Part shown: piece after piece, positions 1,101-11,911 of the stretch | Numbering within the stretch: the stretch's first letter is position 1 | Layout: each line of letters begins with the position of its first letter | Assembly (NCBI GenBank): GCA_910578285.1 | Contig: CAJTQL010000002.1 | Span: 30,951 to 94,950, forward strand | Direction of reading: 5' to 3' | Length of the DNA stretch: 64,000 nt | Source of the DNA: an uncultured Helicobacteraceae bacterium | GTDB lineage: Bacteria > Campylobacterota > Campylobacteria > Campylobacterales > Helicobacteraceae | The notes under the pieces: generated by a model | The model's database searches: none | Told to the model about the DNA's origin: nothing | Seen by the model: only the letters and a program-made list of their open reading frames with translations | Made by a program: the position numbers and the translations under genes

Positions 1101-2567
1101 TTACCTTATTTGTCGTTTCAGTAGAACCCAAACAGCAAAGCTTAAGAGAAGACTTAGGATTCCTAAGATTCCAATGACAATGAAAAACGTTTGGAGATAC
1201 AAATGCAAAGCCTCACTTTGTAACTCAAGATTCTCAATCAAGCCTAGATTTCCACTTGCAATGATAGAAACATAAGAATGCAGAGAACTGCTACTGTTTG
1301 CAGCGATGAATGCTTGCATAAGAGCGCCATAGAGTGCAACACCCAAAGCTTCAGAACCTAACCGAAATGAGTTAAGTACACCTGCTGCAAATCCAGATTT
1401 TTCTATATCAACACTGCTTAGCGCGAGCCTATCGATTGCCCCTGCATGCAACCCCATACCACAACCAATGATAAAAAGCGCTGATAGAATCGATAGAATT
1501 TGTATCATGCCACTTAAAAAATATAAAACAATTAAAAGCAAAAATAATCCCAAACTCATCATCAAAGATACAATTAACGCAAAAAGTTTAGGGTTCATTT
1601 CTTTGTTTAAAAACCTTGTTGCTAGGATTGGACAAAAGAGCATAGGTGCAGTGAGCGCAAGCATAAAAACTCCAGTCCATGAAGCAGATAAGCCAAACAC
1701 AGCAGAAAGAAAAACTGGAAAGTATGTGAGTAAAACCACAAAACTAAAACCAGCAATCATTGTAACGAGCGTGAAGCCAACAAAAGTTGGATTATTCAAA
1801 ACCGCAATATCTAAAAATGGCATTTTATCATGATGATAACGTCTTCTTTGATGTTGCACAAAAACAACACCTATTATAACATAAAAAACAAAAAACGTGA
1901 GCATGGAAACTTGATGATAATCATTGAGATTTATAATAAAAAACATCAAGCTTGATATGAGTATAAGAAATAAAATCGCACCGATAATATCAAAATGAAA
2001 AGCTTGTTGTTTCTGTTGATATTGAGGCAATAAACATACGAGCACAAAAACAAGAGCAAGGATTAAAAAATGAAATATAAAAATTGCTTGATAAGAGAAG
2101 ATATCAACCAAAAAACCACTCATTGTGGGTCCAAGCGTGATTCCGAGCCCAGCTGTTGTACCAAAAGCTGCAAATACTTTGGCATGGTCTTTCGCGCTAA
2201 AAGCATGCATTAACAGCGTGCTACCGCACGCAAAAACGCTTGCCCCGCCAATGCCCGCACACGCGCGAGCAATATCGAGCCACAAAAGCGTGGGCGCAAA
2301 GGCAGAAAGCAACGAGGCGATGAGATAGAGCGTCACGCCTGTAAGCAAACAATGTTTTGCACCCCATTTATCGCTGATTGCGCCCCAAATCAATGTAAAG
2401 CACGCAAAAAAGAGGTTGAAACTATTTACGACCCATTGCAGCAGCACGGAATCGCTCCCAAGTTTTTGAGCGATATAGGGCAGGGCAATGGCTGTGCCAG
2501 AAATCGAACTTGGCACGACAAACACAGCACTAAACACAGCACTGCAAAGAACGAGCTTTTGAGACAT
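1101..2567 (-). CDS. MFS efflux transporter, DHA2 (EmrB/QacA-like, 14-TM type)
   Basis: 488-aa highly hydrophobic ORF. It has an MFS motif-A-like GAISDKWGAKHCLL after TM2, and its length fits the 14-TM drug:H+ antiporter class. Confidence 0.85.
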   Translation of the reverse strand: MSQKLVLCSAVFSAVFVVPSSISGTAIALPYIAQKLGSDSVLLQWVVNSFNLFFACFTLIWGAISDKWGAKHCLLTGVTLYLIASLLSAFAPTLLWLDIARACAGIGGASVFACGSTLLMHAFSAKDHAKVFAAFGTTAGLGITLGPTMSGFLVDIFSYQAIFIFHFLILALVFVLVCLLPQYQQKQQAFHFDIIGAILFLILISSLMFFIINLNDYHQVSMLTFFVFYVIIGVVFVQHQRRRYHHDKMPFLDIAVLNNPTFVGFTLVTMIAGFSFVVLLTYFPVFLSAVFGLSASWTGVFMLALTAPMLFCPILATRFLNKEMNPKLFALIVSLMMSLGLFLLLIVLYFLSGMIQILSILSALFIIGCGMGLHAGAIDRLALSSVDIEKSGFAAGVLNSFRLGSEALGVALYGALMQAFIAANSSSSLHSYVSIIASGNLGLIENLELQSEALHLYLQTFFIVIGILGILSLLLSFAVWVLLKRQIR

Positions 2568-2593
2568 TGTAACTCCTTTGATTCTGTGAATAG

Positions 2594-2660
2594 CTTGTTA
2601 TAATGTAATATATTATACTATAACAAGAATGTAGCAAGTGTAGCAAATTTTTGTTATAAT
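2594..2660. promoter_or_regulatory. Divergent MFS/Rrf2 control region with an inverted repeat and two extended -10 boxes
   Basis: Inverted repeat CTTGTTATA (2594-2602) / TATAACAAG (2619-2627). TGTTATAAT (TGnTATAAT type) occurs twice on the + strand (2597-2605 and about 2652-2660), the second about 52 bp upstream of the Rrf2 ATG. Confidence 0.35.
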
Positions 2661-2711
2661 GTCAAGTGTAACAACGGAGCAATGATTATAAATATTAAAT
2701 GAAGGAATACC

Positions 2712-3188
2712 ATGCAAATCCCCACACGTTTTAGCATTGCAGTCCATATTTGCCTATGTTTAGAATTTTTTGATGCAGATTCAGAAACGAATCATGATTG
2801 CGACAAAGTGCATTGCAAAAAAATGACAAGCGAGGTTTTGGCAGATTCTGTGGGCGTGAATAGCGTTATTGTCCGCAATATCCTTGCCCAGCTTAAAATG
2901 GCAAATATCGTGAGTGTATCACGTGGAAGTGGCGGGAGCAAACTCGCGAAGAATCCGCAAAAGATTAGTTTGCTTGATATTTTCAATGCGGTCGATTCGA
3001 TGGGCGAGGATGGGCTTTTTCGATTCCATACAAACTCTAGCAAACTTTGCCCTTTGGGCAAAAATATCCATTTTCTTTTAGATACCCATTTTGAACAAGC
3101 CCAAAAAGCCTTGGAAAGCTATCTTGAAAATATTAAATTGATTGATTTGCTCAAAATTTTGCAAAATTCAAATAAGAGATTCGCTTGA
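2712..3188 (+). CDS. Rrf2/BadM family transcriptional regulator
   Basis: 158 aa. The N-terminal MQIPTRFSIAVHICLCL... and the wHTH segment MTSEVLADSVGVNSVIVRNILAQLKMANIVSVSRGSGG are typical of Rrf2. It is divergent from the MFS pump. Confidence 0.8.
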   Translation: MQIPTRFSIAVHICLCLEFFDADSETNHDCDKVHCKKMTSEVLADSVGVNSVIVRNILAQLKMANIVSVSRGSGGSKLAKNPQKISLLDIFNAVDSMGEDGLFRFHTNSSKLCPLGKNIHFLLDTHFEQAQKALESYLENIKLIDLLKILQNSNKRFA

Positions 3189-3628
3189 TTCTCGCACAGG
3201 AATGCAGAGAATTGTTTTGAGTTTTTGTGGAGCAATTTTGTTGCGATTGCCCAAATAAATTTCAATTACATGCCCATTCAAAGATTTCTTGAATGATAAA
3301 GTTCTGCTTGGGCAATCATTGCCTGCCATTGAAAATTATCTTTGTCTTTAAAATCTCCGTTACCCCACCATAGCGATTCTAGAGGAGGTACGACATAATC
3401 AAAATGCCCCTGAATGTTTTTGCTCTTGTCCATTTTTATGGCGTATGAAAGGGCATATAAAACCTTCAAAGCCTCTTGGTATGCACCGCCGCTATCGTTT
3501 GGGTTGCCTTCTCCCCGCACGGCAATAAACGACATCTTGGGCACAAACACACGCTCGGGAGTTTGTTTTGGTGTGTATAGTTCTTTAAAGGCTTTTTTAA
3601 AATCAAATTTTTGCATTGTTGGGCTCAT
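3168..3628 (-). pseudogene. GyrI-like (SbmC/AraC effector-binding fold) small-molecule-binding protein, internally deleted or frameshifted
   Basis: ORF 3278..3628 (MSPTMQKFDFKKAFKELYTPK...GEGNPNDSGGAYQEALKVLYALSY...PPLESLWWG) stops early at ...AELYHSRNL*. The expected C-terminus (GHVIEIYLGNRNKIAPQKLKTILCIPVRE) is readable in another frame at 3168-3275, and the middle of the domain is missing. Confidence 0.55.
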
Positions 3629-4088
3629 TCTTTTTCCTTTTAGTGAATTTTTCCTTTGCAAATTCATAAGATTCTCGTATCATGATTTTAAATTCTCCAA
3701 AAGTTGTATTAGAGGGATTTAAGACACATACCCAACCCATCCACGCATAGACAGGGTGAGGGATAATGGTATCTAAAATGGTAAAGTCATAATCCATTTT
3801 TACAATATTTCCGGCAGATGGACGTTCGGGGATATGCCCAAAACGTTCAATAAAAGTCTGCTTTCTTAGCCCAACATTGACACGATAGACATTATCACGA
3901 TTCAGCAAAGAAGCTTTATCATTGTCGCCATCTTTTTCTTTGATAGTCAAAACATAGACGCCTCGCTTCAAAACGCCGTTTGGATTATAGAAAATACCTT
4001 TTTCGCCCCAACTCTCCACTAGCGTAGTATCCCTTAAATTAGATAGACAATAAGAAAGAATATCATTAGTCGTCATTGCTTCTTTCAT
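3603..4088 (-). CDS. DUF6194-like protein
   Basis: Start taken at MKEAMTTND (ATG 4088), directly after the upstream stop. The motif block FYNPNGVLKRGVYVLTIKEKDGDNDKASLLNRDNVYRVNVG...HPVYAWMGWVCVLNP matches my recollection of DUF6194. Confidence 0.5.
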   Translation of the reverse strand: MKEAMTTNDILSYCLSNLRDTTLVESWGEKGIFYNPNGVLKRGVYVLTIKEKDGDNDKASLLNRDNVYRVNVGLRKQTFIERFGHIPERPSAGNIVKMDYDFTILDTIIPHPVYAWMGWVCVLNPSNTTFGEFKIMIRESYEFAKEKFTKRKKNEPNNAKI

Positions 4089-4089
4089 T

Positions 4090-4461
4090 TTATGATTCTT
4101 CTCCTTTACGCTTGCCTTTTGCTTTTTTGGGTTGAGGAGTAGGCAAAACTGGAGCAAGAGCAAGAACGACATCTCGCAGAGTTTGTGGCGAATCCACGTC
4201 AAGAATGTAGGATTCTTTAGCGCTGGGATAAGGGAAGCCTTTGGGCGTAGATTTTAAAAGTGTCGCTAGAATCGTATGTTGCTTGACATAGAGCGTCTCA
4301 TCGCAAAGCAAAAAAATCGGCTTTGGCACGGCGCAGGAATCGGACACATAGATACAATACTCGCCAAACATTTTCTTGGCACTGAAACGATATGGCTCGC
4401 CTTGCAACGCGCTATCGAGCGTCTCGAGCACAAAATCCTTGAAGCTTTCACTAGTCGCCAT
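4090..4461 (-). CDS. TfoX/Sxy N-terminal-domain protein
   Basis: 123 aa. FKDFVLETL...KKMFGEYCIYV...LCDETLYVK is typical of the TfoX_N fold. It has a lysine-rich tail. Confidence 0.55.
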   Translation of the reverse strand: MATSESFKDFVLETLDSALQGEPYRFSAKKMFGEYCIYVSDSCAVPKPIFLLCDETLYVKQHTILATLLKSTPKGFPYPSAKESYILDVDSPQTLRDVVLALAPVLPTPQPKKAKGKRKGEES

Positions 4462-4541
4462 GTCTTATGTCCCCGTCCTAATGGAATGTGATATGATAGC
4501 ACAAAAAACGCATTAAAAAATAAATTTATGCGCTGCTCCTA

Positions 4542-4880
4542 TCATTTCTTTGCCTTTAAATATTTTTTAATTAGCTTTATCGCCCAATCATAATGGCTTG
4601 AAGTCGCGCTCACGCAATAGTTTCCGAGACTCGTTGTACCACACCATGGATAATGCTTTTTGATAAAAAGTTCCTTATCTGGTAAGTGTTGTATCATCTC
4701 CATACAAGCGGCATGGCTCTTGTGCAACATAGATTTTGCCTCACTCAAGGGCGTATTTTGGTGCTTTTGCCATAGCTCTTGATTCATTTTTGGATAGGTT
4801 TTGAAATTATAGGGTGCGGGCAAAAAGGGCACGAAAGCATTGGTTTTGCTAAGATTTGTTTGCACAAAAAGAATTTGCAA
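4542..4880 (-). pseudogene. ClbS/DfsB (DUF1706) family four-helix-bundle protein, N-terminally truncated
   Basis: Only about the C-terminal 100 aa is present (…NQELWQKHQNTPLSEAKSMLHKSHAACMEMIQHLPDKELF…WCGTTSLGNYCVSATSSHYDWAIKLIKKY), against about 170 aa for the family. The 5' end abuts the ATPase/TOPRIM cassette. Confidence 0.45.
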
Positions 4881-4918
4881 TTTTTATTGGGGCGAATTGT
4901 TGTAGCTATTTTGCTGCT

Positions 4919-5440
4919 TTACTCATTCTTTAGCCCCAAAAGAAAATCTTTTAATGGTTCTAAAAATTTATGTTCAATATCAAAACATTTTTCAAAATCT
5001 TCCGCCTTCATTTCTTTAGGGTTACATTGTAGAATTTCCTTATACGAAAAAAGTTTTCTTTTAGAATCTGGTGGTTCATACCCCAATCTATTTATGCATT
5101 CTATAAAAGAATTAAAACACTGAATAATATTTTGATGACGTACAATCTTTTCTAAAATTGTTTCAAGGTTTCCACAATCTTGATTATTTGGGAACAAAAA
5201 TATTTTTACTTCGTTGAATTTCTCTTTAATAATATTATTAAAACTTTCTTCAAAATTGTCATCGCAATCAAAAATAATGGCAACTCTATGATGATTGTAT
5301 TCCTCTATTTTTTCACGCACTAAATCAAAATTTTTGTTGCCACCTACTTCTTCAATTTTATATCCTAGCTTTAATTTTTGAGTATAAAATTTTAAAAATT
5401 CTTTATCCTCTTTTCCTTCAACAATCAGCAGTATCTCCAT
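4919..5440 (-). CDS. Small TOPRIM-like protein (DUF3226/DUF4435/DUF4276-type), partner of the upstream ATPase
   Basis: 173 aa. It has N-terminal LLIVEGKEDKEFL (conserved Glu-Gly) and VAIIFDCDDNFEE (DxD), then LFPNNQDCGNLETILE. Its start overlaps the ATPase stop by 1 nt. The gene is very AT-rich. Confidence 0.6.
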   Translation of the reverse strand: MEILLIVEGKEDKEFLKFYTQKLKLGYKIEEVGGNKNFDLVREKIEEYNHHRVAIIFDCDDNFEESFNNIIKEKFNEVKIFLFPNNQDCGNLETILEKIVRHQNIIQCFNSFIECINRLGYEPPDSKRKLFSYKEILQCNPKEMKAEDFEKCFDIEHKFLEPLKDFLLGLKNE

Positions 5441-6456
5441 TATCGCACCTCGATTCCTTCTGCCAACATTTCTTGTACTATATCAACAGAACGCACAAAT
5501 ACTTTAATTTTTTGATCTTGATTCCTTATGAACTTTAACAATGTAAATTCATTACGTAAGGCTTGTGATTCGGAAAGTAAGATATTAATATTTTCTAATA
5601 CTTCTTTGCTGTGTGTTGTAATAAATAATTGAAATTGCTTTTGCCTTGATATTTCAAATAAAGATTGCAATAGTGCCTTAAGTCGTTTATGATAAATGCC
5701 ATTTTCGATTTCATCGATAAAAATACACTTTATATTTTCATCTAACACAGCTGTGACGATATTGAAATATCGCTCAAAACCTTTTCCTAATAGCTTTATA
5801 TCTAATTTTTCTTTAATATTTCTAACTTTTACATGTGGTGCTTCAGGTAGCAATGCAATATCTTCAATGTTGGGGTCAATAATTTGTAATAATTTGACTA
5901 ACTCTTTTTCTTTAGAGTTCTTAATGATTATTGAAAGATTCTCTAAAAATACATTCACAACATCTGCAGGCAGAAAACATCCAACACCAAGAGGTTGGAG
6001 AGGTTGAAAGTGTTCCGAAAAAATATTTCCATTAAGATAATCAAAAAAATATCTTTTCTGCTTTGGGTCTAATAAGTTTTTATAACAAAAGATTTTTTCA
6101 TTTAAATTGATATTTTGGCGAATTATGCCATACTCTTTTTGAAGTTCGTTTTCGCTCTCCAAAGAGATTTCAAAATCATAAGCTTGTTTAGCATATTGAA
6201 ACTCAAAACGTATGGGTTTTTCATAAAAGTTATGAAAAATATTTCCTACATTCATGGAGTTTAAGGGTATTTTGCGTAAATCATAGATATTTTTTAAAAT
6301 CGCCGGATTAAAGGGAGAAAGGGCAATAAATAGGGCTTCCAAAAGTGTTGTTTTTGCCGTATTATTATCGCCCACAATCACATTGATACGACTAAATGAA
6401 TCAATAGAACAATCTTGTAGTGCTCTAAAATTGTGAATATGAATTTTTTCGAACAT
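5440..6456 (-). CDS. ABC/OLD-type (AAA_15/AAA_21-like) ATPase
   Basis: 338 aa. N-terminal MFEKIHIHNFRALQD...INVIVGDNNTAKTTLLEAL is a Walker A with Ala in place of the second Gly. Walker B is CIFIDEIENGIYH, followed by FITTHS (H-loop). Confidence 0.7.
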   Translation of the reverse strand: MFEKIHIHNFRALQDCSIDSFSRINVIVGDNNTAKTTLLEALFIALSPFNPAILKNIYDLRKIPLNSMNVGNIFHNFYEKPIRFEFQYAKQAYDFEISLESENELQKEYGIIRQNINLNEKIFCYKNLLDPKQKRYFFDYLNGNIFSEHFQPLQPLGVGCFLPADVVNVFLENLSIIIKNSKEKELVKLLQIIDPNIEDIALLPEAPHVKVRNIKEKLDIKLLGKGFERYFNIVTAVLDENIKCIFIDEIENGIYHKRLKALLQSLFEISRQKQFQLFITTHSKEVLENINILLSESQALRNEFTLLKFIRNQDQKIKVFVRSVDIVQEMLAEGIEVR

Positions 6457-6507
6457 AATGTGGTATCCTTATTGAGTCCTATAATGCTTTATTGATGCGC
6501 AGCATCC

Positions 6508-6540
6508 AACAAGTCTTTACCATAGCGATAAAGACTTGTT
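6508..6540. terminator. 12-bp stem hairpin downstream of icd
   Basis: AACAAGTCTTTA (6508-6519), 9-nt loop, TAAAGACTTGTT (6529-6540), lying 37 nt past the icd stop. There is no clear U-run on the icd strand. Confidence 0.35.
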
Positions 6541-6576
6541 AAAATACAATAACAATGACACTATTGCAGGCCGCTT

Positions 6577-8781
6577 CTACCCCGCAATCTTACCAAGAAT
6601 CGCGTTAAAAGTCGTGCTTGGGCGCATGATTTTTTCGGTTTTGGGGTCATCAAACTTATAATATCCGCCCAAATCAACCTTCACGCCCTGCGCGTCCAAA
6701 AATTCCTTGTGAATCTTTGCCTCGTTGTCGGCAAGCTCTTTGGCAATCGGCGCGAAAAATCCAGCAATTGCAGAATCATCGTCCTGCGCGGCGAGCGCCT
6801 GTGCGAAATACATTGCGAGATAAAAATGGCTTGTGCGGTTGTCGTCCTCGCCAACCTTGCGTGAAGGCGCTTTGTTTGCTTCGAGCCATTTGCCAATCGC
6901 ACCATCGAGCGCGCTCGCGAGCACTTTTGCTTTGTTGTTGTTTTTCTTTTGTGCATAAAATTCGAGGCTTGCTTGCAATGCGAGAAATTCGCCCAAGCTG
7001 TCCCAACGCAAATGGTTCTCATTCACGAGTTGTTCGACTTGTTTGGGTGCGCTTCCGCCAGCACCTGTCTCGAACATCGCCCCGCCATTTAACATAGGCA
7101 CGACTGATAGCATCTTCGCACTTGTGCCGAGCTCAAGAATTGGGAAAAGATCGGTGAGATAGTCGCGCAACACATTCCCGGTGATAGAAATCACGTCTTT
7201 GCCCTCGCGAATGAGCTTGAGCGAGAGTTGGCAAGCCTCTTTGGGGGCGAGAATCTCCATGTCTTTGCCCTTTTCTTTCAATCGCGCACGCACCAAATCA
7301 ATCATAATCTTGTTACTCGCGCGCTTAGAATCAAGCCAGAAAATCGCCTTGCTGCCTGTGAGCTCGGCGCGTTCAATACCTAGATCAATCCAATTTTGCA
7401 CCGCGTCAAACTTCGCTTGGTTGGCGCGATAAATGTCATTTTGATGTACCTTGTGTGAAAGCAAAACCTTACCGCTTTCATCGACAATGCGAAACTCGCC
7501 ATCGCTTGGCGCAAAAAATGTTTTGTCATGTGAGCCATATTCTTGCGCCTTGCGTGCCATAAGCCCGACATTCGCCACGCTGCCGAGTGTCGCGGGGTTG
7601 AGCGCGCCGTTTTGCTTCATGTCGTCCAAGACGGCTTCGTAGATTGTCGCATACGTTTTGTCGGGAATCACGGCGTTGGTGTCGCATTCTTTGCCGTCTT
7701 TGTCCCACAACCGCGCGCCGTTTTTGAGCATTGCGGGCATAGACGCATCGACAATCACATCGCTAGGGACATGCAAATTGGTGATTCCTTTGTCGGAATT
7801 AACCATCGAAATCTTGGCGCTTTTGTTTAGAATCTCTTGATATTTCGCGAGAATCTCGGATTTTTTGGGGCTTTGTTCAATCTTGCTAAGCAGCTCTGAA
7901 ACGCCGTTGTTGGGATTGATGCCGAGTTTTTGCAGCTCGTCTGCGAAAGTGTCGAAGAGTTCTTTGAAATAGGTTTTGACAGCATAGCCGAAAATCACGG
8001 GATCACTGACTTTCATCATCGTTGCCTTGAGGTGGAGCGAAAACAGGATATTCTCTTTTTTGCAAAGCGCAATTTGCTCATCATAGAATCGGCAAAGCGC
8101 GGCGACATCGAGAAATGTTGCATCAAGAATCTCATTTTTTTCAAGCTTGAGCCCGTCTTTGCAGACATTCACCTTGCCATTGTTATCGACAAATTCAATC
8201 CGCGCTGTGGTGGGCGATTCGAGCAATATCGCTTTTTCATTCTCAAAGAAATCACCAGCTCCCATATACGAAACGCATGATTTAGATGCTTTGTCAAAAG
8301 CCGCAACGCGATAGGGATTTTTCTTGGCATATTCTTTAACGGCTTTTGTGCAGCGGCGGTCGGAGTTGCCCTCGCGAAGCACAGGATTCACGGCAGAACC
8401 AAGCACTTTTTGGTATTTTGCCTTAATCGCCTTTTGCTCGTCATTTTGGGGCTCGTCAGGAAACTCGGGCAACGCATAGCCTTTTGCTTGCAATTCTTTG
8501 ATGGTGGCTTTGAGTTGTGGAATTGAAGCGGAGATGTTGGGTGTTTTGATGAGATTTGCCTCGGGGCGCTTGACAAGCTCACCAAGCTGGGCGAGTGAAT
8601 CTTGTACACGTTGCTCGGGCTTGAGAATCTCGGGAAATTGCGCAATCACGCGGGCAGAGAGCGAAATATCAGATGTGGCGACTTCGACATTTGCATGCTT
8701 CAAAAAGGCTTGGACAATCGGCAAAAACGAATAAGTCGCAAGCGCTGGGGATTCATCAGTGAGAGTATAGGTGATTTTCAT
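6577..8781 (-). CDS. icd: Isocitrate dehydrogenase (NADP), monomeric type
   Basis: 734 aa, the size class of monomeric IDH. The N-terminus [23 protein letters not shown] is typical. Confidence 0.93.
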
Positions 8782-9146: not shown

Positions 9147-10505
9147 TTAGCCCATCAACACGACAAGCGCTTCGATGCTTTGTTCAAAATCCCAGCTCTC
9201 TTCGATTCCTTGTTTCAGAAAGTTTTCCATTGCTTCTTTTTTGTCTATCGCTTCATCAAGTTCTTTGTCTCTGCCCTTTTGATACGCACCAATGCGAATG
9301 AGCACCTCATTTTCGCGCAATAGCGAATACAGCCGCCGAAATTTACGCGCCGCGAGGATATGCGCTTCGGAACACAAATCGTTCATAAGACGCGAAGCTG
9401 AATTGAGAATGTTGATGGGTGGGTAGATTCCAAAGTCTGTGAGCTCACGGCTTAGGACGATGTGCCCGTCCAAAATACTGCGGCTTTGGTCGCCAATGGG
9501 GTCGTTCATGTCGTCTCCCTCGACAAGCACTGTAAAAAACGCCGTGATTGAGCCGCGCCCTTCTTCTTTGCCGGCGCGTTCCATGAGTTGTGGCAAGAGC
9601 GTGAGCACCGATGGTGGATAGCCCTTACTTGTTGGTGGCTCGCCGAGTGCTAGCCCAATCTCGCGCTGCGCCATTGCAAAACGTGTTACAGAATCCATCA
9701 TAAACAAGACATCATGCCCTTGGTCCTTGAAAAACTCTGCCACACTCATTGCCGAAAATGCCCCATATTTACGCATAAGCGGCGAATCATCGCTCGTTGC
9801 GACAACGAGCACTGTGCCGCTTAAATCGCCGCCGAGATTCTTTTCGACAAACTCGGGCACTTCGCGCCCGCGCTCGCCCACAAGCGCGATAATCTTAATC
9901 GGCGCATCGACACCTTTGACAATCATTCCCATAAGCGTGCTTTTGCCCACACCGCTTCCAGCGAAGATGCCGAGCTTTTGTCCCTTGCCACATGTTAGCA
10001 AACCATCAATTGTCTTGATGCCCACATTAAACACTTCGTCAATCATTCCGCGCTTCATTGCGACAATCGGCGGGCGGATAATCGGCGCGCTCTCTGTCGC
10101 GAGAATCTCGCCCTTGCCGTCAATGGGTTGCCCAAGTGGATTGATGACGCGCCCAAGTAATGCCTCGCCAACGGGGATTTGCAAACCTTTGTTGTTGATG
10201 AAGATTCTATCGCCCACACGATTGCCTTCGACAAAAGAGAATGGCGAAATGCTAAAGGTTTGCGTGTCTACAACCGTAACCATTCCCATGCTTTCGTGTC
10301 CGTCCTCATGCCGCACGATTTTGACAATATCGCCCACGCTAGGCTTGAGCCCTGTGGCGACAATGCTATTGGACATCACTTTTGTGATTGTGCCAAAGGC
10401 AGGGGAGAGGGTTGAGACTTCGAGTTTTTTGCGCAGTTGTTCTAGTGCCACGATTCTTCCTTCGTTTGAAAAATCAAGCATAGCACGCTTTTGCTTGTAT
10501 TGCAT
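9147..10505 (-). CDS. fliI: Flagellum-specific (T3SS) ATPase FliI
   Basis: Walker A GSGVGKST and F1/T3SS ATPase core. Start set at MQYKQKR (ATG 10505); the longer ORF to 10610 is probably an upstream extension. Confidence 0.9.
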   Translation of the reverse strand: MQYKQKRAMLDFSNEGRIVALEQLRKKLEVSTLSPAFGTITKVMSNSIVATGLKPSVGDIVKIVRHEDGHESMGMVTVVDTQTFSISPFSFVEGNRVGDRIFINNKGLQIPVGEALLGRVINPLGQPIDGKGEILATESAPIIRPPIVAMKRGMIDEVFNVGIKTIDGLLTCGKGQKLGIFAGSGVGKSTLMGMIVKGVDAPIKIIALVGERGREVPEFVEKNLGGDLSGTVLVVATSDDSPLMRKYGAFSAMSVAEFFKDQGHDVLFMMDSVTRFAMAQREIGLALGEPPTSKGYPPSVLTLLPQLMERAGKEEGRGSITAFFTVLVEGDDMNDPIGDQSRSILDGHIVLSRELTDFGIYPPINILNSASRLMNDLCSEAHILAARKFRRLYSLLRENEVLIRIGAYQKGRDKELDEAIDKKEAMENFLKQGIEESWDFEQSIEALVVLMG

Positions 10506-10612
10506 TAAAGAAACGACTCGCAATAACCAAAAATAAAGTTTTTGTCTGCTAGAATCGCATACCAAAGTTATCGATGAATAGTCGCATAACGTCAAAATAT
10601 CTAGGGGCATTT

Positions 10613-11911
10613 ATGAATATCCAAACAACCAAAAATGACGCAGCAAATGCGCTTGCAAGTGGAGTTATCGAGCAAAAAACGCTTGATTCGAAGACAGCAT
10701 CGCTCACACAAAAGGCAGCAAAAACATTGCATATCGATGGTTTTCGCAAGGGCAAAGTGCCTGTGAGCATTGTGCGCGCACGTTATGGCAAACAGATTGC
10801 CGAGGATGCTGAACAAGAGGCAATCAAGGATTTCATCAGCACTGCATTCAAAGAGTTGGGCGTGAAAGAAGAGGACACACTCGGTAGCCCGATGTTTTTG
10901 AAGTTTGATAGAAACGAGAATGGAATCGAGGTTGAAGTGCGCTTTGCGTTGCGCCCAGAGTTTGATATTGCGCCCGCGAAAGCCGCTGTACCAAGCTTTG
11001 AAGTACCTGATGTGAATGAATCAGAAATAGACGAACAGCTCGCAAAATTTGCTAAAAATTATGGTGAGTTGCACGATATTGAGAATAGAGCAGTACAAGA
11101 AAATGATATTGTGCAAATCGATTTTGAGGGCTTTGTTGATGACAAAGCTTTTGAGGGTGGCAAAGCAGAGGGGTATAATCTCGAGATTGGCAGCAAGGCG
11201 TTTATCCCCGGATTTGAGGAGCAGCTTGTGGGCATGCAGATTGGTGATTCTAAAGATATTTTTGTCACGTTTCCCAAAGACTATGGCGCGCAGAATCTCG
11301 CGGGCAAAGATGCACGTTTTGCTATCAAATTGCACAGCATTAAAGAGCGTATTCCCGCTCCAATCGATGATGATCTTGCCAAAAAACTTTTGCCCAAAGA
11401 TGAGGATGCGATCTTGCAAAAGCTCAAAGAGCGCGTAAAAGAACAGATTGCAAGCGATAAAAAAGCAAAGCTTTACAACGAAACGCTCAAGGAGAAATTT
11501 ATCGAAAATTTGCTGCAGACTTTTTCGTTTGATTTGCCCGAGAATATCATCGAACAAGAAATGGATATGTTGTTTCGAGGCGAGGTCGATTCGATGGAGC
11601 GCGAAGAGCTTGAATCACTGCAAGGCAAGCGCGAAGAAATCAAAGAGCGACGTGAAAAGCATAAAGAAAAGGCGCAGCGCAATGTCAAGCTCACGTTGAT
11701 TGTCGATGCGCTCGCGCGTGAAAATAAGCTTGGAATCAGCGAGCAGGAGCTATTCATGCGTCTCTATAATGAGGCGATGTTCTTGCGCCAAGACCCTAAA
11801 ACATTGCTCGAATATTACCAGCAAGGTGGCTTTTTGCCCGCATTGCAAATGGCGATGCTCGAAGACAAGGTTTTGACATTTTTGCTTGAAAAGAGTATCG
11901 ACAAGGAGTAA
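10613..11911 (+). CDS. tig: Trigger factor
   Basis: GFRKGKVP signature, central FKBP-type domain, and tig-clpP-def synteny. Start set at MNIQTTKND. Confidence 0.92.

Follow-up and report, generated by a model that had tools for sequence, protein, structure and literature searches.

The window, a stretch of 64,000 nucleotides (nt) from an uncultured Helicobacteraceae bacterium (GenBank assembly GCA_910578285.1, contig CAJTQL010000002.1, positions 30,951 to 94,950), contains a compact two-gene cassette downstream of the isocitrate dehydrogenase (IDH) gene icd. The cassette encodes an ATP-binding cassette (ABC) ATPase of 338 amino acids (aa) and a partner protein of 173 aa. It is likely a self-contained, horizontally acquired defence module of the class that combines an ABC ATPase with a TOPRIM (OLD-like) protein, and its effector mechanism is proposed by analogy. 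Judged by its resemblance to known systems, it is probably an AbiL-like split module of the abortive-infection or toxin-antitoxin-like type. The original prediction, made from the letters of the DNA, had put forward a candidate anti-phage-type cassette of the OLD/PARIS/AbiL class. This proposal is upheld by the full-length AbiLi match of the ATPase, by the assignment of the partner to DUF3226 and by the other defence genes found in the same slot of related genomes. The locus belongs to an already catalogued class and is not a novel variant. Its interest lies in the hotspot where it is placed and in the compact, abundant and unstudied branch to which it belongs.

Both genes are intact open reading frames (ORFs) on the minus strand with ATG starts. 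The ATPase gene (5440..6456) is followed by the gene of the partner, the presumed nuclease effector (4919..5440). The two genes overlap at the sequence TAATG (5438..5442, minus strand; read directly from the sequence), in which base 5440 is common to both. The junction reads CGA-TAA/ATG-GAG on the coding strand and a GAGG Shine-Dalgarno-like motif is located a few bases upstream of the partner start. The overlap and the motif together point to translational coupling of the two genes, and an overlapping or abutting order of ATPase and partner genes is also found in the relatives. The two genes are AT-rich, with approximately 29% G+C. Over positions 4900-6400 the G+C fraction is 0.26-0.30, compared with 0.40-0.52 on both sides, and the G+C fraction at third codon positions is 0.24 in the ATPase gene and 0.20 in the partner gene, against 0.55 in icd and 0.54 in fliI. 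The ORFs, their composition and their 1-nt overlap, between icd and a truncated ClbS-like gene, are as originally described.

The 338-aa protein is a complete Rad50/SMC-type ABC ATPase with every ABC catalytic motif. It matches the Pfam families AAA_21 (2e-18; 67.8 bits, cut-off 27) and AAA_15 (1.7e-16; 61.2 bits, cut-off 32.1), and the PADLOC model AbiLi (PDLC02336) covers it from end to end (1.1e-64; protein 1-338, model 1-340 of 340). The PADLOC models PDC-M38A, AriA, GajA, NsnB and PtuA match it far more weakly: five PDC-M38A models reach up to 1e-34 and the AriA models 1.4e-20. The motifs are a Walker A (G29-K35-T36), a signature-like G224/G226, a Walker B (D248-E249) and an H-loop (H282). 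In an alignment of the window protein with 40 relatives, which are 23-32% identical to it except for one at 80%, the residues G29, K35, T36, D248, E249, G253, Q276, T281, H282 and R338 are invariant. The AlphaFold2 (AF2) model (predicted local distance difference test score, pLDDT, 84) has the ABC head fold, with 328 matches in the PDB at E<=1e-3 (Foldseek). The top matches (1e-12 to 1e-11) are PtuA (Septu, retron-IA), Rad50, cohesin/SMC heads, GajA and Thermus OLD. The two lobes of the model are separated by beta strands and a pair of short helices (171-190), with no long coiled coil or helical bundle. The ABC/OLD-type ATPase of the original prediction is thus borne out in its motifs, all of which are present, in its AAA_21, AAA_15 and AbiLi matches and in its GajA/OLD-like fold. 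The prediction had also singled out an atypical Walker A with Ala at position 34. The residue is indeed there, but it is no special feature: this position holds G in 20 of the 41 ATPases, C in 14, K in 4, A in 2 and S in 1. The idea that Ala34 marks the ATPase as inactive or special was rejected, since the position varies in the family.

A separate observation concerns the end of the ATPase. Its C-terminal residue is Arg in all 41 aligned members, within a tail [ED]-[IV]-R that is directly followed by the stop in most of them. The V337/R338 codons are located at window positions 5440-5445 and the ATPase stop codon overlaps the partner start. The tail may be functional, for example by contacting the partner.

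The partner belongs to the Pfam family DUF3226 (PF11536; 3.3e-15, 56.9 bits, cut-off 27), with residues 4-170 matching profile positions 3-206 of 208. This value and the 1.1e-64 of AbiLi exclude chance for both family matches. Among the PADLOC models, AbiLii (PDLC02338; 8.5e-9, a partial match over residues 34-167) and PDC-M38B (8.6e-9) tie, and mad4 follows (0.005). Motifs, topology and the profile matches of the family support the TOPRIM membership of the partner well, but the structure search gave no proof of it. The acidic signature read in the original prediction, E8-G9 and D58-x-D60, is present and conserved: in an alignment of 82 partners E8 is kept in 82, G9, D12, D58 and E93 in 81 each and D60 in 73. 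The invariant residues are E8, P84, G90, C108, L163 and F166, and at least 90% of the sequences keep G9, D12, D58, E93, C115, K127 and Y133. At the family level all 82 partners match DUF3226, 34 match OLD-like_TOPRIM (best 3.4e-7), 11 DUF4435, 8 Toprim, and 2 each RloB and DUF4276. In the AF2 model (pLDDT 95.4; predicted template-modelling score 0.89) residues 1-90 form a four-stranded beta/alpha TOPRIM-like core with strands at 3-7, 28-31, 52-57 and 79-82. E8 stands directly after strand 1 and D58-x-D60 directly after strand 3; the classical TOPRIM layout of Aravind, Leipe and Koonin (1998) is reportedly a Glu after strand 1 and a DxD after strand 3. The C-terminal domain (92-172) is helical and contains C108, C115, K127 and Y133. 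Both cysteines, C108 (82/82) and C115 (81/82), are in the first helix of this domain, and no known TOPRIM motif explains either of them.

Several observations weigh against a TOPRIM effector in an AbiL- or PARIS-like module and must be set beside this evidence. The window partner stays below the cut-offs of OLD-like_TOPRIM (E=0.0019; 19.1 bits, cut-off 23.2) and RloB (PF13707; E=0.031; 14.9 bits, cut-off 31.5), and it has no Pfam DUF4435 match at E<=0.1. Among the families that the original prediction had named as worth searching, AAA_15 and AAA_21 are therefore above the cut-off, the OLD TOPRIM is sub-threshold and DUF4435 is without a match in the window partner; DUF3226 is the family. The alignment of the partner family profile with P2 Old (hhalign; residues 2-61 on Old 392-456, E=0.0017) has a probability of just 15% with the single-sequence template. 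The same alignment also speaks for the TOPRIM reading: it pairs VEGKED with VEGKTE of Old and DCDD with DCDF, and places D12 opposite Old E402, the mutation of which gives a catalytically dead OLD (bioRxiv 10.64898/2026.07.10.737580). A search for homologues of P2 Old 385-586 returned 3 fragments only and no OLD-TOPRIM profile could be built; tblastn of this region against plasmids and phages found P2 itself only. Foldseek with the partner model found nothing at E<=1e-3 in the PDB or BFVD. Its best lists consist mainly of generic Rossmann/CheY-like folds, with TOPRIM domains among the sub-threshold local matches only. These include the TOPRIM of the T7 gp4 primase (6n9u_F; probability 0.97, root-mean-square deviation 3.2 A, 90 columns) and some ten entries for phage TOPRIM proteins or DnaG-type primases. 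The partner sequence matched only a designed Rossmann protein in the PDB (E=0.024), and the 82-sequence profile gave non-significant PDB matches only, the N-terminus of 2p62 / PH0156 included. Moreover, the ATPase model has no long helical element like that of AriA, the ATPase of PARIS, so a PARIS-style architecture may not apply. Lactococcal AbiL requires both genes and acts after phage transcription, with its mechanism unresolved (PMC13064643). Finally, DUF3226 is named in no paper in the literature search, and the ATPase+DUF3226 branch consequently appears experimentally untouched.

The position of the cassette was compared across 62 icd loci, collected by an IDH protein scan with one genome per species, of which approximately 28 are from Helicobacter or Helicobacteraceae. 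Neither gene was found by tblastn or profile hidden Markov models (HMMs) in any of these loci, including those of the nearest genomes L001 and L002, two uncultured Helicobacter metagenome-assembled genomes whose IDH is 96% identical to the window protein. The cassette has a single close relative, L067, a metagenome sequence that carries the pair in the same slot. The comparison of icd loci proposed in the original prediction therefore finds no universal core pair. The strain-variable segment comprises 1,947 bp (4624..6570): by blastn, L001 and L002 are homologous to the window up to 4623 and again from 6571, which is 6 nt beyond the stop codon of icd. The unit common to the window and L067 (4899..6570; 83.6% nt identity) is the minimal conserved module and includes the leader. 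In blastn, L067 1-1714 is aligned with window 6619-4899, and the first 43 nt of L067 are the end of icd.

The contents of this slot differ in the sister genomes. The L001 slot (2522-6886, 4.4 kb) encodes a type II methyltransferase (MTase_II, 5.8e-165), a CfrBI-type restriction enzyme (REase_II, 6.4e-121), a caspase-like protein, a weak ThsB-like (TIR-like) protein and a GNAT acetyltransferase. The L002 slot (9212-11450, 2.2 kb) contains two ThsB/TIR-like proteins (1.5e-62 and 2.3e-59) that flank a membrane protein matching PADLOC PDC-M50A/B, together with a truncated GNAT gene. In this Helicobacter clade the interval from icd to TfoX is a hotspot for defence genes.

The left edge of the slot is formed by the 5'-truncated remnant of a DUF1706 (ClbS-like) gene (4542..4880, minus strand; Pfam DUF1706 3.9e-33), which covers profile positions 72-166 of 166 only and has an in-frame stop just upstream. 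The original prediction took this truncation as the mark of the insertion. The remnant is, however, shorter still in the cassette-free L001 and L002, which keep the last approximately 43 residues, whereas the window keeps about 85 more. The truncation is therefore a sign of repeated slot turnover and no footprint of this insertion, which suggests that DUF1706 was eroded by successive and independent deletion or replacement events. The GNAT gene of L001, as well as its truncated copy in L002, abuts the shorter remnant. Insertion by a dedicated site-specific mobile element was considered and rejected: there is no tRNA in the whole 64-kb window, the variable segment is not flanked by direct or inverted repeats and its 1.9 kb contain no integrase or transposase ORF. 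The favoured explanation is instead that the conserved flanks recombine homologously and thereby exchange the cargo, which the natural competence of the genus makes plausible.

In the cassette leader (6457..6570, minus strand) an AAGGA ribosome-binding site precedes the ATPase ATG by 9 nt, and there is a perfect 12-bp hairpin (6508-6519 / 6529-6540; RNA fold -22.4 kcal/mol, z=-5.3). L067 (77-107) retains the hairpin, with two compensatory changes from U-A to C-G pairs, and no U-tract follows it (6508-6540). Located between icd, whose stop is at 6577, and the ATPase gene, whose start is at 6456, it could be the terminator of icd or a regulatory element of the cassette. The promoter scan found 12 sites against 9.9 expected from shuffled sequence, which is not above chance, and therefore no promoter is claimed.

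Outside this slot the pair is widespread. A word-indexed search recovered 4 relatives of the partner, and an exhaustive HMM search with their profile yielded 1,482 clusters at 50% identity, 647 of them at E<=1e-10. The partner lengths are nearly all 172-231 aa (best 150 of 1,482 clusters), with a family median of 189 aa; the median of the ATPases is 353 aa (range 335-381 aa). The sizes that had led to the proposal of a minimal or new variant are therefore normal for a large existing family, for which PADLOC models of matching length exist, and the proposal does not stand. In each of nine relatives examined in genomic context (L067, L063-66, a Fusobacterium-type locus, L070, L073, L074/75, L076 and two enterobacterial plasmids) the ATPase gene is immediately followed by the DUF3226 gene, usually with an overlap. 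The two genes are a strict module, always travelling together. The L067 proteins are 80% (ATPase) and 77% (partner) identical to those of the window, and the L063-66 partner is 31% identical. Apart from the plasmids, the pair is located between unrelated housekeeping genes that differ by lineage. The Logan metagenome contigs L063-L066 carry a distant pair inside a cluster for nucleotide-sugar biosynthesis, between UDP-glucose dehydrogenase and a dTDP-sugar isomerase, with no mobility gene.

All family ATPases tested match AbiLi best among the PADLOC models, and the partners are split between AbiLii and PDC-M38B, most of them with PDC-M38B as the best match. PADLOC consequently already covers the family, under two labels. 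The ratio of nonsynonymous to synonymous substitutions (dN/dS) against the L067 orthologues is 0.19 for both genes at a synonymous divergence (dS) of 0.53, while that of icd is 0.04-0.05 at a similar dS. Both genes are thus under purifying selection and evolve faster than core genes.

A wider reading is that the ATPase+DUF3226 pairs form a distinct and experimentally unstudied branch of the ABC-ATPase/TOPRIM superfamily, with the smallest effector of the class (approximately 170-230 aa). This is a tentative possibility, on the unlikely side. The branch has an effector with its own helical domain and two near-invariant cysteines, and an ATPase with an invariant terminal Arg and without the PARIS helical insertions. 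If it is true, the stoichiometry, the trigger or the nucleic-acid target could differ from those of PARIS, OLD and Gabija.

The family also occurs on plasmids. A tblastn search of PLSDB with the window ATPase (72,556 plasmids, E<=1e-5) returned 143 records, 133 of them from Klebsiella and none from Lactococcus. The pair is the main annotated cargo of ColE1-type plasmids of approximately 4 kb from Klebsiella, E. coli and Salmonella. Two records were inspected, NZ_AP026957.1 (L071; 3,793 bp) and NZ_OW970520.1 (L072; 4,167 bp), and both do encode the partner; their other annotated genes are those of Rop, MobA, a helix-turn-helix protein and a small hypothetical protein. The PLSDB gene table of L072 omits the DUF3226 gene, which the HMM places at 3672-4166. 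With the partner as query, tblastn against the plasmids found nothing, whereas the family HMM does detect the partner on the same plasmids, which shows that the partner is highly divergent.

This plasmid distribution, in which the pair is the chief annotated cargo alongside genes for replication and mobilisation, is what would be seen if the pair were mainly a toxin-antitoxin (TA) module, with a TOPRIM toxin and an ATPase antitoxin, for the addiction to or stabilisation of its carrier DNA and with no dedicated anti-phage role. NetFlax pairs in which AAA proteins neutralise TOPRIM_OLD toxins have moreover been validated experimentally as TA systems (PMC10440598). Nevertheless, the slot is filled by bona fide defence systems in the sister genomes, and a full ABC ATPase would be a costly antitoxin unless it is also a sensor. 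AbiL and PARIS, the closest catalogued relatives, defend against phages and at the same time behave as TA pairs (PMC13064643); the defence and TA roles are thus not exclusive. A mainly TA-type role with no dedicated anti-phage function is accordingly considered improbable.

It is still less probable, and indeed very unlikely, that the cassette has lost its activity and survives as a relic in a region under decay. The truncated DUF1706 neighbour, a pseudogene, the repeated rearrangement of the locus and the lack of a sigma-70-type promoter match upstream of the ATPase on its own strand agree with decay. On the other hand, both ORFs are full length for their families with all catalytic residues intact, the ribosome-binding sites and the coupling overlap are preserved and dN/dS is 0.19 against an orthologue at a dS of 0.53. 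A housekeeping function in DNA repair or recombination, like that of RecF (ABC ATPase) with RecR (TOPRIM) or of Rad50/SbcC-type complexes, would suit the Rad50/SMC-like fold of the ATPase, its N-terminal NCBIfam matches to RecF (1.5e-9) and Rad50 (1.2e-6) and the TOPRIM-like core of the partner, but it is the least probable explanation and is largely refuted by the distribution, as those matches are far under the family cut-offs and confined to the P-loop region, the pair is missing from 62 icd loci including those of the nearest relatives, its base composition is foreign and it is found on small plasmids and, patchily, between unrelated housekeeping genes.

The remaining genes of the neighbourhood are icd itself, which encodes a monomeric IDH (6577..8781; PF03971, E=0), fliI, TfoX_N, DUF6194, Rrf2 and a major facilitator superfamily transporter, besides DUF1706. 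The DUF6194 ORF (3603-4202, minus strand, TTG start, 199 aa) overlaps the TfoX_N-like ORF (4090-4461, minus strand) by 113 nt. The DUF6194 match starts at residue 43, and the true start is therefore probably an internal Met and the overlap not real.

For the defence module, PARIS would be the best mechanistic template by analogy, with an ATPase that is both scaffold and sensor and a released TOPRIM protein that cleaves tRNA. In PARIS, the AriA hexamer holds AriB until a phage trigger frees it, and AriB then cleaves tRNA-Lys (PMC11464382). The tetramer of P2 OLD keeps the enzyme closed, and its destabilisation leads to the cleavage of tRNAs (bioRxiv 10.64898/2026.07.10.737580). By extension, in the uninfected cell an oligomer of the window ATPase would bind the small TOPRIM nuclease and hold it inactive. 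The ATPase would sense, in an ATP-dependent manner, a cue from the phage that may be a protein or an aberrant nucleic acid, and the nuclease would thereby be released or opened. The freed nuclease would subsequently cut host nucleic acid, with tRNA as the favoured target and DNA nicking as the alternative, and would abort the infection or arrest the infected cell. The partner alone is expected to be toxic, and the ATPase would be its antitoxin-like restraint. As the ATPase is without the PARIS-type helical insertions, the stoichiometry and the trigger may differ from those of PARIS.

With the cassette, an enterohepatic Helicobacter lineage that has been little studied gains a probable defence module. 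The slot downstream of icd carries at least three sets of cargo, namely the AbiL-like pair, the type II restriction-modification system with caspase and TIR-like proteins, and the ThsB/PDC-M50 set, and could be mined for more systems. DUF3226-type pairs are abundant, also on small ColE1-type plasmids of clinical Enterobacteriaceae, and are apparently unstudied under that name. Because they are so compact, they would be well suited as a minimal model of the restraint and release of a TOPRIM nuclease by an ABC ATPase. For the class as a whole, nothing fundamental is altered by the window locus.

Among the known systems, the closest is AbiL, which is grouped with PARIS as ABC ATPase plus TOPRIM (PMC11464382, PMC13064643). 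AbiL and the window pair are both bicistronic, with the gene of the ABC ATPase preceding that of a small TOPRIM-clan protein. The AbiL of Lactococcus lactis, with AbiLi and AbiLii, is reportedly the system of Deng et al. (1999). In PADLOC terms, the window pair shows a full-length AbiLi match and a partial AbiLii match in genes that are side by side; the label is given by single-gene PADLOC models and not by the system-calling rules of PADLOC/DefenseFinder. The lactococcal AbiLii is linked to the RloB family PF13707 (PMC10440598). In the system of pND861, AbiLii is PF13707, whereas the window partner is PF11536 and below the RloB cut-off. Lactococcal AbiL was compared through its family assignment and the PADLOC models, and in the strict lactococcal sense, defined by PF13707, the window partner would not be an AbiLii. 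The same pair of proteins matches PDC-M38A and PDC-M38B. PDC-M38 is a computational candidate only, mentioned in no paper in the literature search, and AbiLi is still the better model for every family ATPase tested.

PARIS resembles the window pair in that the ATPase and the TOPRIM nuclease are split over two genes, and the AriA models match the ATPase (1.4e-20). AriA (~55 kDa) and AriB (~35 kDa) are, however, much larger than the window proteins. The helical insertions IS1 and IS2 of AriA build its hexamer (PMC11464382), where the window model has the two short helices at 171-190. DUF4435 is weakly matched by 11 of the 82 partner relatives and not by the window partner. The pair is thus not a member of PARIS: DUF4435 is absent, the AriA match is weak and the AriA insertions are absent. 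OLD and GajA have the same type of ATPase (Foldseek: Ts OLD 6p74, GajA 8x5i/8sm3), and the VEGKxD and DxD motifs of the partner are aligned with P2 Old 392-456. In OLD and GajA both domains are fused in proteins of approximately 530-590 aa and Gabija also requires the helicase GajB, whereas here the two proteins have an ORF each and the slot is free of helicase genes; the pair is therefore neither OLD class 1 nor Gabija. RloA/RloB, found in type I restriction-modification loci of Campylobacter, a related epsilonproteobacterial host, are likewise a pair of an ATPase and a small TOPRIM-clan protein (PMC13064643, PMC10440598). The window pair is without flanking hsd genes and its partner is under the RloB cut-off, so it is not RloAB. 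Taken together, the window pair is a module that would work like PARIS, AbiL or a split OLD, and its closest catalogued label is AbiL, overlapping PDC-M38.

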